The notes under the pieces are model-generated. The model was not told where the DNA came from. It saw only the letters and a program-made list of their open reading frames with translations, and did no database searches. The position numbers and the translations under genes are program-made. Below, piece by piece: positions 4,363 through 10,498 of a stretch of DNA of 13,323 nt. Numbering within the stretch: the stretch's first letter is position 1; each line of letters begins with the position of its first letter. Source of the stretch: a virus (lineage: Duplodnaviria; Heunggongvirae; Uroviricota; Caudoviricetes); the IMG/VR virus record IMGVR_UViG_2565956709_000005, positions 1 through 13,323 of that record; one strand, given 5' to 3'.

Positions 4363-4927
4363 TATCGCGTCCTCAACAATGAATTTTGTGATGCGGTGCC
4401 TGGTGCCTCCAGGTGACGTTAACCAGTTAACAATTAACGCCGGATACAGAGAATCCACCCATAACACTGTTTTTGGTTTTAACTGTTCCGCGTGCGCTCA
4501 GCCGCATTCACCACATCACAAAATTCACTTTAAAAAGGGCGGCAGAGCAGTCACGGAGTAAAACTGATACCGCCAAACGTCACCAGAAAATTGATAACAG
4601 AGGGCGTTGCAGCGGAGTTGTCACTTAAGCGTATGGTCAACCTGACAACCCGGTGTCCTCAACGGAGGAAGGAATAACCCCGCCATACTTACCGCCGCGC
4701 CATTTCGCGGAGTGCCACAACCGGAAGCGCACGGTCGAACTAAATTTAACGACACCGTACAGAGAGACCAATTTCGCCGTGCGCTTTCGCTTTATGCCCT
4801 GACTTTTCAGGGACATATCCTTTCAGTAAACTGTCAGTGCCGGATGTTCACCCGTGTCCGGCGCACGCACTCCACCTGACCCGTGGAGAACTCCTTAATT
4901 ACCAACCTTAGCTTCGTTGGTTAGCTA

Positions 4928-5779: not shown

Positions 5780-6256
5780 TTAAGTTCCTGTCTTGGTGAT
5801 GTTCTGGCTTTTCCGTTTTGATTCTTGATTTTTCAGATAGTTAGCTACCTTCATTTCCATTGCGGCAATGTAGGCGCGAACGTCATGATCAACCCAACTA
5901 GGCTCCGTAGCATTTCCAGATAAGAGGAAAGCCACAATTGCTCTTTTTTCATCAGAGGCGGCTTGATAAAGGCTGTTTATGTCTAAAAGTTCACTTTTTG
6001 TATCTGAAGTGGATGGGGTTGGTATGGGGTATTCGTTAAGCCCCCAATGCTCTGGACCAACCACATCAGAAAAGAAACGCCATAGTTCTGGAAGTTTGTC
6101 TTTACTTATCGAACCTTTCTTAATCCAGTCATGGATTGATGGTGGTTGGACTTTGAAATGACGTGCGATTTCCGCCTTTGATTTGACGGCTCCTGATGCA
6201 ATTTTTTTGTTAATGGCCTGCTCAATCGCTCGGCCTAAGTCTTTACCACTAAGCAT
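5780..6256 (-). CDS. racR: Prophage repressor with HTH DNA-binding domain, RacR-like, 158 aa
   Basis: ORF in track, divergent from a cro/ydaS-like gene. HTH-like segment SKAEIARHFKVQPPSIHDWIKKG. Resemblance to E. coli Rac RacR (also 158 aa) is from memory, not a search. Confidence 0.75.
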   Translation of the reverse strand: MLSGKDLGRAIEQAINKKIASGAVKSKAEIARHFKVQPPSIHDWIKKGSISKDKLPELWRFFSDVVGPEHWGLNEYPIPTPSTSDTKSELLDINSLYQAASDEKRAIVAFLLSGNATEPSWVDHDVRAYIAAMEMKVANYLKNQESKRKSQNITKTGT

Positions 6257-6283
6257 TGCTTAATAGTCTCCTATGCGCATCGC

Positions 6284-6353
6284 GTTAGGCAATCCCTACT
6301 CTCGATGTATTAGGCATAGCCTATTGACAATTGCATTAGGCTAAGCCTAATAT
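6284..6353 (+). promoter_or_regulatory. Predicted rightward early promoter P_R with operator sites (O_R) between the repressor and cro-like genes
   Basis: -35 TTGACA (6324-6329), 18-bp spacer, -10 TAATAT (6348-6353). Perfect 17-bp palindrome ATTAGGCTAAGCCTAAT at 6335-6351, near-palindrome ATTAGGCATAGCCTATT at 6309-6325, and a degenerate third site at 6284-6300. Site centres are 25-26 bp apart. Confidence 0.55.
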
Positions 6354-6380
6354 TGTTGCGTGTTTTTTGGAGTTCATTCG

Positions 6381-6704
6381 ATGAAAAAAGATAACTATTC
6401 ATTCAAACGAGCTTGTGCTGTTGTCGGTGGGCAATCAGCAATGGCTAGGCTTTTAGGTGTATCTCCTCCAAGCGTAAATCAATGGATCAAAGGTGTACGT
6501 CAGTTGCCTGCTGAGAGATGTCCTGCGATTGAACGAGCAACAAAAGGTGGTGTCCTGTGTGAAGAACTTCGTCCTGATGTTGATTGGACATACTTACGAC
6601 GCTCGTCATGTTATTCGCAGAATATGTCGATGAAGCAACCAAATGACGAAAACGATCATACCCGAAGCATCAAGAGGCAAATGATTCATGAAAATCAAAC
6701 ATGA
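6381..6704 (+). CDS. ydaS: Cro-like HTH regulator, YdaS-like, 107 aa from ATG 6381
   Basis: GGAG lies 9 nt upstream of ATG 6381 (track starts at GTG 6360). HTH segment GGQSAMARLLGVSPPSVNQWIKG. Start matches my recollection of Rac YdaS (MKK.NYSFK.ACAVVGGQSAMARLLGV...), unverified. Confidence 0.7.
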   Translation: MKKDNYSFKRACAVVGGQSAMARLLGVSPPSVNQWIKGVRQLPAERCPAIERATKGGVLCEELRPDVDWTYLRRSSCYSQNMSMKQPNDENDHTRSIKRQMIHENQT

Positions 6705-7113
6705 GCACATCCGCATGGCGATGAATGCTTGGGCATACCCTGATGGTGAGAAAGTTCCTGCAGCTGAAATAGCCCGGACTTATTTCGAACTGGGGATGAC
6801 GTTCCCTGAACTGTACGACGACAGCCATCCGGAAGCCCTGGCCCGTAATACACAGAAAATTTTCCGTTGGCTGGATAAAGACACCCCTGATGCTGTTGAA
6901 AAAATTCAGGCTCTGTTACCGGCGATCGAAAAGGCAATGCCGCCTCTGCTGGTGGCCCGTATGCGCAGTCACAGCTCTGAGTATTACCGGGAGATTGTCG
7001 AACGGCGGGATCGGCTGGTGAAGGATGTCGACGATTTTGTTGCGTCAGCGGTTGTTTTGTATGACCAGATGAATCGCGGCGGCCCGGCAGGGAATGCTGT
7101 GGTGATGCACTAA
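6688..7113 (+). CDS. ydaT: YdaT-like protein (toxic partner of YdaS in Rac, kept silent by RacR), 141 aa
   Basis: ORF in track; overlaps ydaS-like stop by 17 nt; begins MKIKHEHI as I recall for YdaT. Mostly synteny-based. Confidence 0.6.
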   Translation: MKIKHEHIRMAMNAWAYPDGEKVPAAEIARTYFELGMTFPELYDDSHPEALARNTQKIFRWLDKDTPDAVEKIQALLPAIEKAMPPLLVARMRSHSSEYYREIVERRDRLVKDVDDFVASAVVLYDQMNRGGPAGNAVVMH

Positions 7114-7135
7114 AAGCACGGTGTTCGGGGGTTTT

Positions 7136-8098
7136 ATGAGCAGCAAGCTTCATGGTCTTGTCTGGGAAGGGTGCGCCTTCACCGGCATGATCTTATCCAG
7201 GGTGGCGGTTATGGCCCGTCTTGCAGACTACAGCAATGACGAGGGCGTGTCATGGCCTGCCATTGAAACTATCCGGCGTCAGATCGGTGCAAGAAGTGAA
7301 TCCACAGTGAAATCGGCTATTGCAGAACTGGCGAAAGAGGGCTGGCTGACGAAGGAAGAGCGTAAGGTCGGTGGGCGTAATGTAAGCAATATCTATCGAC
7401 TTAATGTGGAAAAACTCGAAGCAGCTGCGGCGGCGGCGCGTGAGTCATATAAACCGAAAAGAAAAATTAGCCCGGCAAAAAATGACCCGTTAACAGTTGA
7501 CCCGTCAAATATTGACCCCTCAACGGTTGACCCGTCAAATTTTGATGGATCAACTGTTGATAAAAAACTGCCGATTAGGGGGGCGATGATTGACCCCGAT
7601 CCGTCAGTATTAAAACCTGATCCGTCAGATAAAAGATCTTCTTGTCCGGACGCTTCGCAACCGGACCCGCAGACGGCTGAACAGGATTTTTTAACCCGAC
7701 ACCCTGACGCGGTTGTGTTCAGTGCGAAAAAACGCCAGTGGGGAAGTCAGGAAGATTTGGTGTGCGCACAGTGGATCTGGGGACGAATCGTGAGTCTTTA
7801 CGAGCAGGCGGCCAGCTATGATGGCGAGATCACTAGACCGAAAGAACCCAACTGGACAGCATGGGCCAATGACGTTCGCACAATGCGGATGCTGGATGGC
7901 AGAACTCACAGACAAATTTGTGAAATGTTTGGGCGTCTCCAGCGGGATTCGTTCTGGGTAAAAAACATCATGAGTCCGGCAAAACTCCGGGAAAAATGGG
8001 ATGAACTGGTTATCCGCCTGGGGCGTTCGCCTGCGCAGCGTTGCGTGAATCACATTTCTGAACCGGACACTGAAATTCCGCCGGGCTTCAGGGGGTAA
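7136..8098 (+). CDS. Phage replication initiation protein (N-terminal winged-helix HTH, O-like), 320 aa from ATG 7136, with ori iterons inside the coding sequence
   Basis: N-terminal HTH-like region (...WPAIETIRRQIGARSESTVKSAIAELAKEGWL...). Central DP(S/L)N/TVD peptide repeats are encoded by the DNA iterons. Position after the cro/cII-like genes matches lambda O. ATG 7136 is preceded by a G-rich stretch; the track's GTG 7121 is the alternative start. Confidence 0.7.
   Translation: MSSKLHGLVWEGCAFTGMILSRVAVMARLADYSNDEGVSWPAIETIRRQIGARSESTVKSAIAELAKEGWLTKEERKVGGRNVSNIYRLNVEKLEAAAAAARESYKPKRKISPAKNDPLTVDPSNIDPSTVDPSNFDGSTVDKKLPIRGAMIDPDPSVLKPDPSDKRSSCPDASQPDPQTAEQDFLTRHPDAVVFSAKKRQWGSQEDLVCAQWIWGRIVSLYEQAASYDGEITRPKEPNWTAWANDVRTMRMLDGRTHRQICEMFGRLQRDSFWVKNIMSPAKLREKWDELVIRLGRSPAQRCVNHISEPDTEIPPGFRG
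7482..7553. repeat. Candidate replication origin: five 12-bp dyad iterons (TTGACCCGTCAA-like) at 15-bp phasing
   Basis: Copies at 7482 (ATGACCCGTTAA), 7497 (TTGACCCGTCAA), 7512 (TTGACCCCTCAA), 7527 (TTGACCCGTCAA) and 7542 (TTGATGGATCAA), each TTGAC-NN-GTCAA-like. Followed by an A/T-rich stretch (7555-7570) and more TGACCCC / CCGTCAG repeats to about 7628. Confidence 0.6.
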
Positions 8099-8138
8099 GT
8101 GTTAATTTCTGGTCATGAGGTAATTTTCAGGAGGGCTT

Positions 8139-8561
8139 GTGGCAAAAGTTTTTACACAAGAAGAGCGGGAAAAAATTAAAGGGCAGGTTGTTGAACTCGT
8201 ACGCCAGAGTGGGCGCGAGACGTTACGACAACTGGAAACTAAAACTGGGGCAACAAGATATCTGATGAGCGTTCTGGCCAGAGAGCTGGTTGCCAGCGGC
8301 GATGTATACAACTCCGGCTACGGGTTATTCCCCTCTGAACAGGCGCGTAAGGACTGGCAAAACGCCCGCAAAAAACTCTCGAGGGCAAAGGTGAAGAAAC
8401 CTGCTGTGGTTGATCCGGACCTTATCTGGTCATCACCTGACGGAGAAATACGTCGCTACGACAGTCGCCTAAACATAATCTGTCGCGAGTGCCGGAAGAG
8501 TGAAGCTATGCAGCGTGTACTGGCTTTCTATCAGGGTAATTTTCAGGAGGCGGTACTGTGA
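8139..8561 (+). CDS. Hypothetical protein, 140 aa, GTG start
   Basis: AGGAGG lies 4 nt upstream of GTG 8139. The 16-nt ribosome-binding-site module GGTAATTTTCAGGAGG occurs just upstream and again at the gene's 3' end. Confidence 0.55.
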   Translation: MAKVFTQEEREKIKGQVVELVRQSGRETLRQLETKTGATRYLMSVLARELVASGDVYNSGYGLFPSEQARKDWQNARKKLSRAKVKKPAVVDPDLIWSSPDGEIRRYDSRLNIICRECRKSEAMQRVLAFYQGNFQEAVL

Positions 8562-8618
8562 GTGAAATTAGCTATCAGGCTTCAATTACCGCTGGCATTC
8601 GCATCAAAGGAGAGGAGC

Positions 8619-8975
8619 ATGGAAATAAAACCAGAGGATGAGTTAAGCAATATCGTTTTATTTCCGGTAAAAGAGGATGACCCTCGTAATCAGGTTAATT
8701 TTCTTTATGAGCCATCGGAAAGACCATATTGTCATCACGCCTCTGTCCGGGTTGACGAAAAAGAGCGTCAGGTCCGCTGTAAAATCTGCGGTGCAGTTGT
8801 GGAGCCATTTGACTGGATGCTCTCTGTGGCGAAAAGAGAAACCAGACTGGCAGATGATGTAAGGCTCTTGCGTCAAGAGGAGCGGGAAAGGCGAAAAAAT
8901 ATAGAAAAGCTAATTCAGATTGAGCGTAACGCGAAAGCGCGGATACGCAGGGCGACAAAATCCAGAACTGAATAA
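8619..8975 (+). CDS. Hypothetical zinc-ribbon-like protein, 118 aa from ATG 8619 (track version starts at GTG 8562)
   Basis: Strong ribosome-binding site AAGGAGAGGAG directly upstream of ATG 8619. Cys/His cluster YCHHASV...CKICG. Basic coiled-coil-like C-terminus. Confidence 0.55.
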   Translation: MEIKPEDELSNIVLFPVKEDDPRNQVNFLYEPSERPYCHHASVRVDEKERQVRCKICGAVVEPFDWMLSVAKRETRLADDVRLLRQEERERRKNIEKLIQIERNAKARIRRATKSRTE

Positions 8976-9068
8976 TTAAATTTAGCTCTGTTAAAAATTT
9001 AATCCTTAACCGGAGGGATTTCTGCACCCTCAGAACATCAGGAGGCCGCCCGAAAGGGCGGTAGTTAA

Positions 9069-9251
9069 ATGCGAAAGTTTAAAATAATTATTGAAACGGG
9101 AATAGCCGGTGGAGATTTCGAGGATGAATTCGAAGTGGATGATGATGCGACGCCTGATGAAATACATGACGAAGCAAAAGATATTTTCTTTAACTACTGC
9201 AATTACTCATATCACGAAATAAAAGACGAAGAGGAAGAACAAAATGGCTGA
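9069..9251 (+). CDS. Very acidic small protein, 60 aa (20 Asp/Glu against 5 Lys/Arg), unknown function
   Basis: ORF in track. AGGAGG (9040-9045), then a GC hairpin (9046-9061), then ATG 9069. Composition counted by hand. Confidence 0.5.
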   Translation: MRKFKIIIETGIAGGDFEDEFEVDDDATPDEIHDEAKDIFFNYCNYSYHEIKDEEEEQNG

Positions 9252-10166: not shown

Positions 10167-10221
10167 GACTGCGGGTGCTTGAGGCTATCTGTCTCAGGCA
10201 TGAACACCAAAAGGCAGATAG

Positions 10222-10295
10222 AGAAAAGCCCCAGTTAACATTACGCGTCCTGCAAGACGCTTAACATTAATCTGAGGCCATATCTATGCTCTACA
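10222..10295 (-). ncRNA. sok: Predicted Sok-like antisense RNA covering the mok ribosome-binding site and start codon
   Basis: Inferred from hok-locus architecture. Minus-strand terminator-like structure (hairpin GCGUC...GACGC nested in a GGCCUCAG/CUGGGGCU stem, then UUUUCUCU) ends near 10222. Weak candidate promoter on the minus strand (-35 TTGCCT 10329..10324, -10 TAACCT 10306..10301). Boundaries approximate. Confidence 0.35.
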
Positions 10296-10498
10296 CACGT
10301 AGGTTAGCCTCTTACGTGCCGAAAGGCAAGGAGAAGCAGGCTATGAAGCAGCAAAAGGCGATGCTAATCGCCCTGATCGTCATCTGTTTAACCGTCATAG
10401 TGACGGCACTGGTAACGAGGAAAGACCTCTGCGAGGTACGAATCCGAACCGGCCAGACGGAGGTCGCTGTCTTCACAGCTTACGAACCTGAGGAGTAA
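10286..10498 (+). CDS. mok: Mok-like reading frame (in-frame N-terminal extension of Hok), 70 aa
   Basis: ORF in track. Starts 19 codons upstream of hok in the same frame, an arrangement I recall for MokC/HokC. GAGG lies 8 nt upstream of ATG 10286. Confidence 0.6.
   Translation: MLYTRRLASYVPKGKEKQAMKQQKAMLIALIVICLTVIVTALVTRKDLCEVRIRTGQTEVAVFTAYEPEE
10343..10498 (+). CDS. hok: Hok/Gef-family type I toxin (small membrane-depolarising peptide), 51 aa, HokD/RelF-like
   Basis: Sequence MKQQKAMLIALIVICLTVIVTALVTRKDLCEVRIRTGQTEVAVFTAYEPEE has the Hok/Gef signature (N-terminal transmembrane helix, ...LVTRKDLCEV.IRTG..EVA.F.AYE...). AAGGAG lies 10 nt upstream. Confidence 0.88.
   Translation: MKQQKAMLIALIVICLTVIVTALVTRKDLCEVRIRTGQTEVAVFTAYEPEE

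Follow-up and report, generated by a model that had tools for sequence, protein, structure and literature searches.

The stretch of DNA analysed here, called the window below, comprises the 13,323 nucleotides (nt) of IMG/VR record IMGVR_UViG_2565956709_000005, from a lambdoid prophage of the Rac-immunity type. At 7136–8098 (+ strand) it carries a gene for an O-type replication initiator of 320 residues, and the segment 7467–7673, inside the linker-coding part of this gene, is probably (about 80%) the replication origin of the prophage. This assignment draws on the repeats found there, their conservation at the DNA level, their co-variation with the N-terminal domain (N-domain) of the initiator, the domain layout of the protein, its homology to lambda O and the absence of a helicase-loader gene, all of which were computed directly. 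An O-type lambdoid origin inside the initiator gene is an arrangement already well known. What is distinctive here is a strict 15-base-pair (bp) codon-phased tandem of short dyads, an N-domain of the HTH_36 type, a conserved core with GATC sites, and a DnaT-like tail in place of a loader gene.

Iteron array

The array occupies 7482–7556 (nt 347–421 of the initiator gene) and consists of five 15-bp units, each with a 12-bp dyad TTGA-SSSS-TCAA of the type TTGAC-CC-GTCAA. The units start at 7482 (ATGACCCGTTAA), 7497 (TTGACCCGTCAA), 7512 (TTGACCCCTCAA), 7527 (TTGACCCGTCAA) and 7542 (TTGATGGATCAA), exactly 15 bp apart. To the left, in the same register, lies a degenerate unit with three mismatches (7467–7481, TTAGCCCGGCAA). 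To the right is a degenerate sixth unit with an A-tract (7557–7576, TTGATAAAAAACTG), in which the weak unit at 7557 reads TTGATAAAAAAC; A-tracts recur at this end of the array in relatives.

Tandem Repeats Finder reported, over 7471–7545, a period of 15 (5 copies, 71% matches) and alongside it a period of 30 (2.5 copies, 84% matches, score 101), which indicates that two unit subtypes alternate. The word TTGAYNNRTCAA occurs three times in the 13.3 kb, always within the array, where 0.10 occurrences are expected and none of 200 shuffles gave three. A search of the window for TTGACCCGTCAA with up to two mismatches found no copy outside 7482–7553. As half-sites alternate throughout the array at 7- and 8-bp spacing, GTCAA-N3-TTGAC is an equally valid way of cutting the units, and which of the two dyads is covered by one protein dimer cannot be said from sequence alone.

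The array is read in frame and encodes the pentapeptides NDPLT VDPSN IDPST VDPSN FDGST VDKKL. An earlier note on this DNA had described five 12-bp dyads at 15-bp steps in the initiator gene, encoding a DP-type linker and followed by an A/T-rich stretch and further partial repeats. The dyads were recovered in the sequence, by Tandem Repeats Finder and in the comparison with shuffles, and the DPxxx pentapeptides do lie in a predicted disordered linker. The A/T-rich stretch is present though moderate (GC fractions of 0.30 and 0.35, against 0.52 for the gene), and the partial repeats are TTGACCCCGATC at 7590, CGATCCGTCA at 7597 and CTGATCCGTCAG at 7617.

Conservation of the repeats in relatives

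Loci encoding relatives of the initiator (80 in all) were fetched from one-genome-per-species contigs, and the 73 with a full-length gene (250–400 residues) were used for the counts of origin cores, tails and loaders. Comparison of iterons among related initiators had been named beforehand as a check, and in 73/73 of these relatives, from many enterobacterial genera, an array of 15-bp period was present at the same spot, directly after the N-domain. The number of iterons was roughly 2–9.

In relatives of class A, to which the window itself belongs (the classes are those of the N-domain, described below), 26 units read TTGACCCCTCAA, encoding DPS or DPP, and 14 read its exact reverse complement TTGAGGGGTCAA, encoding EGS or EGL. 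The DNA motif survives inversion while the peptide changes. An earlier test of codon bias was partly circular, the arrays having been defined by TGA-N4-TCA, and units that had not been used for selection were scored instead: 46 class B loci were picked by their first unit only and units 2–4 were scored. Third codon positions carried 1.4–1.5 bits in the dyad arms and 0.5–0.7 bits at the dyad centre, against an average of 0.71 in the N-domain (85% protein identity). Conservation tracks the dyad and not the codon phase. The count of AGY serine codons, which is partly conditioned on the array definition, was 0/444 in the arrays against 743/2110 elsewhere in the same genes.

Close E. coli alleles of 320, 315, 310 and 305 residues differ by whole five-residue (15-bp) units within the array. 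Such in-frame gain and loss of units is possible because the five-codon period is strict; the spacings in lambda and phi80 would not permit it. These comparisons argue that the repeats are under selection as DNA and are no by-product of a repetitive peptide.

A/T-rich core, GATC sites and inverted repeat

The first A/T-rich patch, 7537–7576 (GC 0.30, among the lowest 40-nt windows of the gene), is made up of the last full unit and the degenerate sixth unit; the second (GC 0.35) is at 7603–7642. Between them an isolated iteron-like site, TTGACCCCGATC (7590–7601), overlaps the first of three GATC sites, and class B relatives have TTTGACCCGTCAGAA at the matching place. The segment 7596–7642 (CCGATCCGTCAGTATTAAAACCTGATCCGTCAGATAAAAGATCTTCT), which is A/T-rich (GC 0.35–0.40) and sits in the region coding for the disordered linker, forms a conserved origin core common to 73/73 relatives. 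It holds two iteron-like dyads 21 bp apart, CGATCCGTCA at 7597 and TGATCCGTCA at 7618, each with a GATC. The GATC sites of the core, at 7598, 7619 and 7635, span 37 bp and are the tightest triplet in the window; their density in the core stretch is 0.020 per nt, compared with 0.0035 elsewhere in the gene, an enrichment of about six-fold. The motif GATCCRTYA was found in the core of 73/73 relatives, with two copies in 56. The core opens with GATCCGTCAGTA, has a second GATCC(G/A)TCA copy in most relatives and is near-invariant across genera and both N-domain classes. It is a candidate for the region that unwinds.

An inverted repeat, TCTTCTTGTCCGG / CCGGACCCGCAGA, with 13-nt arms that are 77% complementary, follows at 7637–7673, in the place that the right arm takes in the origin of lambda. 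At the corresponding place right of the A/T-rich stretch, lambda has TTCGTCAGAGAATTCTGGCGAA and the Providencia relatives have TTCGTCGCAGAATTCTAACGAA, a matching sequence that is read as a near-palindrome centred on GAATTC. By analogy, the inverted repeat may be a functional part of the origin. The earlier note mentioned neither the GATC-bearing core 7596–7642 and the inverted repeat 7637–7673 nor the DnaT-like tail described below.

DnaA boxes were considered as a further part of the origin and rejected: 9-mers that differ from the box at one position lie on either side of the array (7405–7413 and 7555–7563, – strand), but the five of this kind in the window, against 3.1 expected, are at the level of chance.

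Some relatives have methyltransferase genes near the initiator gene. In locus L023 a gene for a Dam-family adenine methyltransferase (PF05869) lies directly 3' of it, and in L024, L027, L030, L031, L036, L039 and other relatives a downstream open reading frame (ORF) shares the N-terminal sequence of the L023 methyltransferase. The complete phage genome PhiR49_1 has an annotated adenine methyltransferase at 8523–9176, one gene further on from the initiator. No adenine methyltransferase gene of this kind was found in the window. These neighbours, together with the conserved GATC sites of the core, are suggestive of a connection: the pairs of GATC sites and the frequent presence, in relatives, of a Dam-family gene after that of the initiator could mean that firing is controlled by methylation.

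The initiator protein

In RefSeq the protein (WP_000095673.1) carries no more than the label 'helix-turn-helix domain-containing protein', and Pfam gives HTH_36 alone (residues 25–71). The whole protein, by contrast with this annotation, falls into PHROG family 391, 'replication initiation O-like' (E = 2e-115). An AlphaFold2 model built on 21 homologues has an N-terminal winged-helix DNA-binding domain (residues 1–104, 7136–7447; predicted local distance difference test score, pLDDT, 75–90) with a helix-helix-helix-helix-strand-strand-helix layout, a predicted disordered linker (residues 110–179, 7463–7672; pLDDT 32–41), a C-terminal helical domain (C-domain; residues 205–297, 7748–8026) and a disordered tail. 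The stretch coding for the linker is nearly coextensive with all of the repeat and origin elements. The best Foldseek matches of the N-domain were winged-helix proteins of the MarR, PadR and ArsR types, all weak (E > 0.001), and this domain is presumed to be the iteron reader. Foldseek comparison of the model with the PDB gave no match for the C-domain and none to DnaT, and none at E ≤ 0.001.

The C-domain is homologous to that of lambda O: hhalign aligned residues 181–313 (99.6% probability, E = 2.6e-24, 37% identity over 123 columns), and tblastn of the C-terminal half gave 35% identity with lambda O and 36% with phi80 gp15 (E = 1e-18). The initiator ORF is intact, and the 90%-identity cluster to which it belongs (representative protein 99% identical) has 3163 member sequences. 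The protein is best described as an O-type replication initiator and not merely as a helix-turn-helix protein.

Comparison with known origins

Lambdoid origins lie midway along gene O and consist of iterons and an AT-rich tract, and the iteron number varies by phage (PMC7466680), with four in lambda and six in Stx phages; the variation among the relatives described above is a likeness to this. The four annotated iterons of lambda ori are at nt 349–433 of gene O, and the four gp15 sites of phi80 (NC_021190) are at nt 365–441 of gene 15. A three-way alignment of the window, lambda and phi80 gave a common order: DNA-binding domain, repeats, A/T-rich piece, Ser/acidic piece overlapping the inverted repeat, and C-domain. 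With lambda the window also shares an initiator whose N-terminal half binds DNA and whose C-terminal half is homologous to that of lambda O, dyad repeats in the linker, and a gene placed in the pR operon behind cro-like and cII-like genes. The claim that this is a lambda-like origin within a gene of the O type thus agrees with the position of the array and with the homologous C-domain.

There are also clear differences from lambda. The lambda iterons are 18 bp long, spaced 20–24 bp apart (20, 24, 23) and not codon-phased, whereas the window has 12-bp dyads in a strict 15-bp (five-codon) tandem. The HTH_36 N-domain has no detectable similarity to the N-domain of lambda O, the conserved GATC cluster is a feature of the window core, and the A/T-rich tract is less extreme than the A-rich stretch after the lambda O iterons. 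Lambda has a P gene and the window none; the lambda tail is ...TDWIYGVDL, while that of the window is DnaT-like. With phi80 the window shares TAAAAGATCTTC just right of the A/T-rich tract in addition to the 36% identical C-domain, and one relative in the protein database is named 'Replication protein 15'. The phi80 sites, however, are 15–16 bp long with a period of 20–21 bp (20, 21, 21), and the P-like gene 14 lies directly downstream.

Plasmid iteron origins (R6K, RK2, pPS10, P1 oriR) likewise have tandem initiator sites beside an A/T-rich unwinding element and winged-helix initiators, and the GATC sites in the unwinding regions of P1 oriR and oriC are a parallel to those of the core. Plasmid iterons, however, are intergenic, about 17–22 bp long and near two helical turns apart, and they are usually accompanied by DnaA boxes; plasmid Rep proteins contain a pair of winged-helix domains and lack a C-domain of the O type. 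An origin of the plasmid type was rejected on the coding position of the array and the chance-level count of DnaA-box matches.

The Rac prophage of E. coli K-12 (L002), compared with window 5780–8561, has the same racR / ydaS / ydaT immunity and early genes directly upstream. Its replication genes, however, encode a DUF1376 initiator, YdaU, and a DnaC-like protein, YdaV, and there is no tandem array in ydaU; the replication module of the window is therefore a different cassette from that of K-12 Rac. For the same reasons, another initiator family and no array, ydaU was discarded as a comparator.

Specificity and module exchange

The N-domain and the iterons vary together. Class A N-domains (MSSKLHGLVWEG...) pair with the iteron nRTTGA-SSSS-TCAAm and class B N-domains (MST/VKL..YVWDG...) with aTCTGAC-nCn-TCAAAa. 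The initiator of phage mEp460 (L085, 2002–2967) has an unrelated N-domain and different repeats (about ATYGGKTCAAAAYG), but from 7633 on its C-domain and DnaT-like tail have 80–96% DNA identity with the window, against 38–53% to the left of this mosaic breakpoint. The breakpoint at 7633 indicates that N-domain, iterons and core form one cassette and the C-domain another. That the iterons set the specificity of the initiator, as had been proposed, fits this evidence, since repeats co-vary with the N-domain and the two are swapped together.

In two E. coli loci (L077 and L080) an ORF of 455 residues starts with the first ~79 residues of a class B initiator and continues with unrelated sequence; iterons are absent. 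It looks like a truncated replication gene of a decayed prophage, possibly ymfN of e14.

Missing loader gene and DnaT-like tail

The earlier note had stated that no DnaC- or P-like loader gene follows the initiator gene in the window. This was upheld: Pfam and PHROG assignments of the window genes included no P-like or DnaC-like gene after the initiator, and four P-type plus two DnaC-type query proteins (among them P, phi80 gp14, YdaV and a DnaC-like protein) gave no tblastn match in the window. The gene next after the initiator, DUF977/Ren-like, is no helicase loader, and PHROG 1621 and DUF7167 come after it. A lambda-type O+P module was accordingly rejected, there being no P-, DnaC- or DnaB-like gene directly downstream.

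The last 20 residues of the initiator, QRCVNHISEPDTEIPPGFRG (...SEPDTEIPPGFRG; 8036–8095), match the end of E. coli DnaT co-terminally with 14/20 identical (70%), and the shared ending is ...SEPDxxIPPGFRG. The likeness is confined to these residues. DnaT lacks both an origin and a domain for sequence-specific DNA binding, and the initiator is itself no DnaT: hhalign against DnaT aligns the last 20–31 residues only, and the NCBIfam DnaT model scores 16.7 bits against a cut-off of 201. Homology between the C-domains of DnaT and O was also considered and is unsupported, as the hhalign similarity stops short of the domains.

Loader genes were then sought in the relatives, within 2.5–3 kb downstream of each initiator gene. 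None was found at the 43 loci with a DnaT-like tail, ...GFR(G/S/T). All seven loci with a Trp-containing tail had a P-like gene (PF06992; the two run against Pfam gave E = 3e-58 and 1e-50); six of these tails end like HWNSPEAWENTL and that of L007 has ...TDWIDGIEND.... One locus with another tail (L059) had a DnaC/IstB-like loader gene, and 22 loci with a third type of tail (WNxIW and similar) had no loader gene. The initiator of the complete phage genome PhiR49_1 has a GFRG tail, and no helicase, primase or loader is annotated anywhere in that genome.

The pattern is a strict either/or, 43/43 GFRG loci without a loader and 7/7 P-gene loci with a W-rich lambda-like tail, and on the reading offered next it would point to the DnaT tail as a recruitment motif. 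Our hypothesis is that the DnaT-like tail substitutes for a phage loader, which would account for the missing gene. A more specific version is offered tentatively, and we would not bet on it: in this loader-less lambdoid module the initiator may have swapped the P-recruiting tail of lambda O for the extreme tail of host DnaT, plugging the origin into the DnaB–DnaC or PriA/PriB machinery. Loader-less phage replication modules were reportedly defined by Weigel and Seitz in 2006.

The likeness to DnaT has been seen before. Phage records label such tail-bearing proteins 'Primosomal protein I', and Brezellec et al. (2017) noted the C-terminal motif of DnaT in the O-like protein DopC. Apart from that paper, a search of the literature on oriJ/Rac and on DnaT with lambdoid phages or prophages found no account of this origin type or of tail mimicry, and no published analysis of the tail likeness was found. 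A 2026 structural paper on the preprimosome (PMC13377028) states that the way in which DnaB/DnaC are recruited by DnaT is not known, and the passages retrieved from it make no mention of the extreme tail of DnaT.

Proposed mechanism and alternative explanations

We infer binding of the initiator, unwinding, helicase recruitment and a role of Dam or SeqA at the GATC sites, as follows. Once repression is lifted, transcription running rightward from ~6324 would make the initiator and traverse the origin, which, by the example of lambda, may be activated by this transcription. The winged-helix N-domain, probably dimeric, would bind the five dyads at 7482–7556, and the initiator would probably also occupy the iteron-like sites at 7590, 7597 and 7618 to give an O-some-like complex. 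The adjacent A/T-rich, GATC-bearing core at 7596–7642 would then open, and the lambda-O-like C-domain and the DnaT-like tail would bring the host helicase machinery directly. Direct recruitment is proposed since an analogue of P or DnaC is missing from the phage.

Several points weigh against this assignment of the origin. No paper describing this initiator family was found, and the reading of binding and firing rests on comparison. The 15-bp spacing is ~1.4 helical turns, against 20–24 bp in lambda and phi80, and for this reason the lambda complex cannot serve directly as a model of the geometry. Base composition in the A/T-rich parts is only moderately skewed (GC 0.30–0.35 over 40 nt). When hhalign was run with the family against lambda O it returned the C-domain alone and left the N-domains unaligned. 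The relatives were gathered by means of N-domain peptide patterns and share ancestry, so their counts are not independent events. Finally, the prophage might be defective, 13 kb being too short to judge.

The first alternative is that the units bind the initiator mainly for autoregulation, copy control or exclusion, while initiation takes place elsewhere in the prophage. Iterons of plasmids do serve initiation and control alike, the 15-bp spacing is atypical of origins and the window shows just 13 kb of the prophage. There are, however, no further iteron copies in the window; directly after the array come the conserved A/T-rich core and the inverted repeat, in the order known from lambda; and array, core and N-domain move as a single module. 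We consider this explanation improbable.

Nor does it seem likely that the sequence is an inactive relic of an origin in a cryptic prophage. Many Rac-like prophages are defective, and the identical ST648 locus contains, ~1.3 kb downstream of the initiator gene, an IS3 element and a frameshifted gene. The initiator gene itself, however, is intact and its cluster large (3163 sequences, as given above), all of the origin elements agree with the consensus of the family, and PhiR49_1, deposited as a complete phage genome, has the sister (class B) module.

That the repeats are only a slippage-prone repetitive peptide linker (DPSxx), with no cis-acting role as DNA, is very unlikely: the array is in frame, in a disordered linker, and alleles differ in unit number, as coding repeats prone to slippage do, but the DNA motif persists where the peptide does not (the DPS and EGS units being reverse complements), conservation runs along the dyad rather than the codon phase, codon choice is fixed across genera, the dyad symmetry has no rationale at the protein level, and the position and flanking elements are those of the lambda and phi80 origins.

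Genetic context

The window covers the early region of a lambdoid prophage integrated beside ompW, and is 100% identical to E. coli ST648 and further complete genomes. The minus-strand genes int, xis and exo come first, with dicB/DicF next in order; racR follows (– strand; NCBIfam RacR, E = 9e-74) and then cro-like ydaS, cII-like ydaT and the initiator gene. On the 3' side of the latter come, in order, the DUF977/Ren-like gene, several small ORFs, hok/sok, DUF968, rusA and Q. A pR-like sigma-70 promoter (TTGACA-18-TAATAT, 10/12 matches) lies before ydaS at 6324–6353 (+). A promoter and terminator scan found no terminator-like site between 6200 and 8200, and neither promoter nor terminator inside the array. 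The initiator gene and the origin are part of the rightward early transcript from the pR-like promoter.

The gene next after the initiator (8139–8561, +) matches Pfam DUF977 (E = 3e-28) and PHROG 142, 'Ren-like exclusion protein'. The ORF at 8562–8975 belongs to PHROG 1621 (function unknown) and has a weak zinc-ribbon match; its RefSeq version is shorter (2168630–2168986 of that record). A tandem repeat of 21-bp period (3.6 copies, 72% matches) is present at 2280–2355 within the large minus-strand exonuclease gene. The Rfam scan of the window gave only DicF RNA at 4537–4588 (–, 76.7 bits) and the sok antitoxin RNA of the hok/sok locus at 10173–10348 (+, 117 bits), both far away from the origin region.

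Conclusions

A protein that RefSeq lists only as 'helix-turn-helix domain-containing protein' is identified as a replication initiator, and the probable origin of the prophage is located. The replication module is widespread in E. coli and also occurs in Edwardsiella, Erwinia, Morganella and Providencia among other Enterobacterales. The origin itself teaches little beyond lambda and is of modest interest; the pattern of tails and loaders is the part worth experiment. It amounts to a natural experiment in which one initiator scaffold carries three tails: lambda-like with a P gene, DnaT-like without a loader, and a third type without a loader. A phage initiator that borrows only the tail of DnaT would offer a direct handle on how DnaT recruits DnaB/DnaC.

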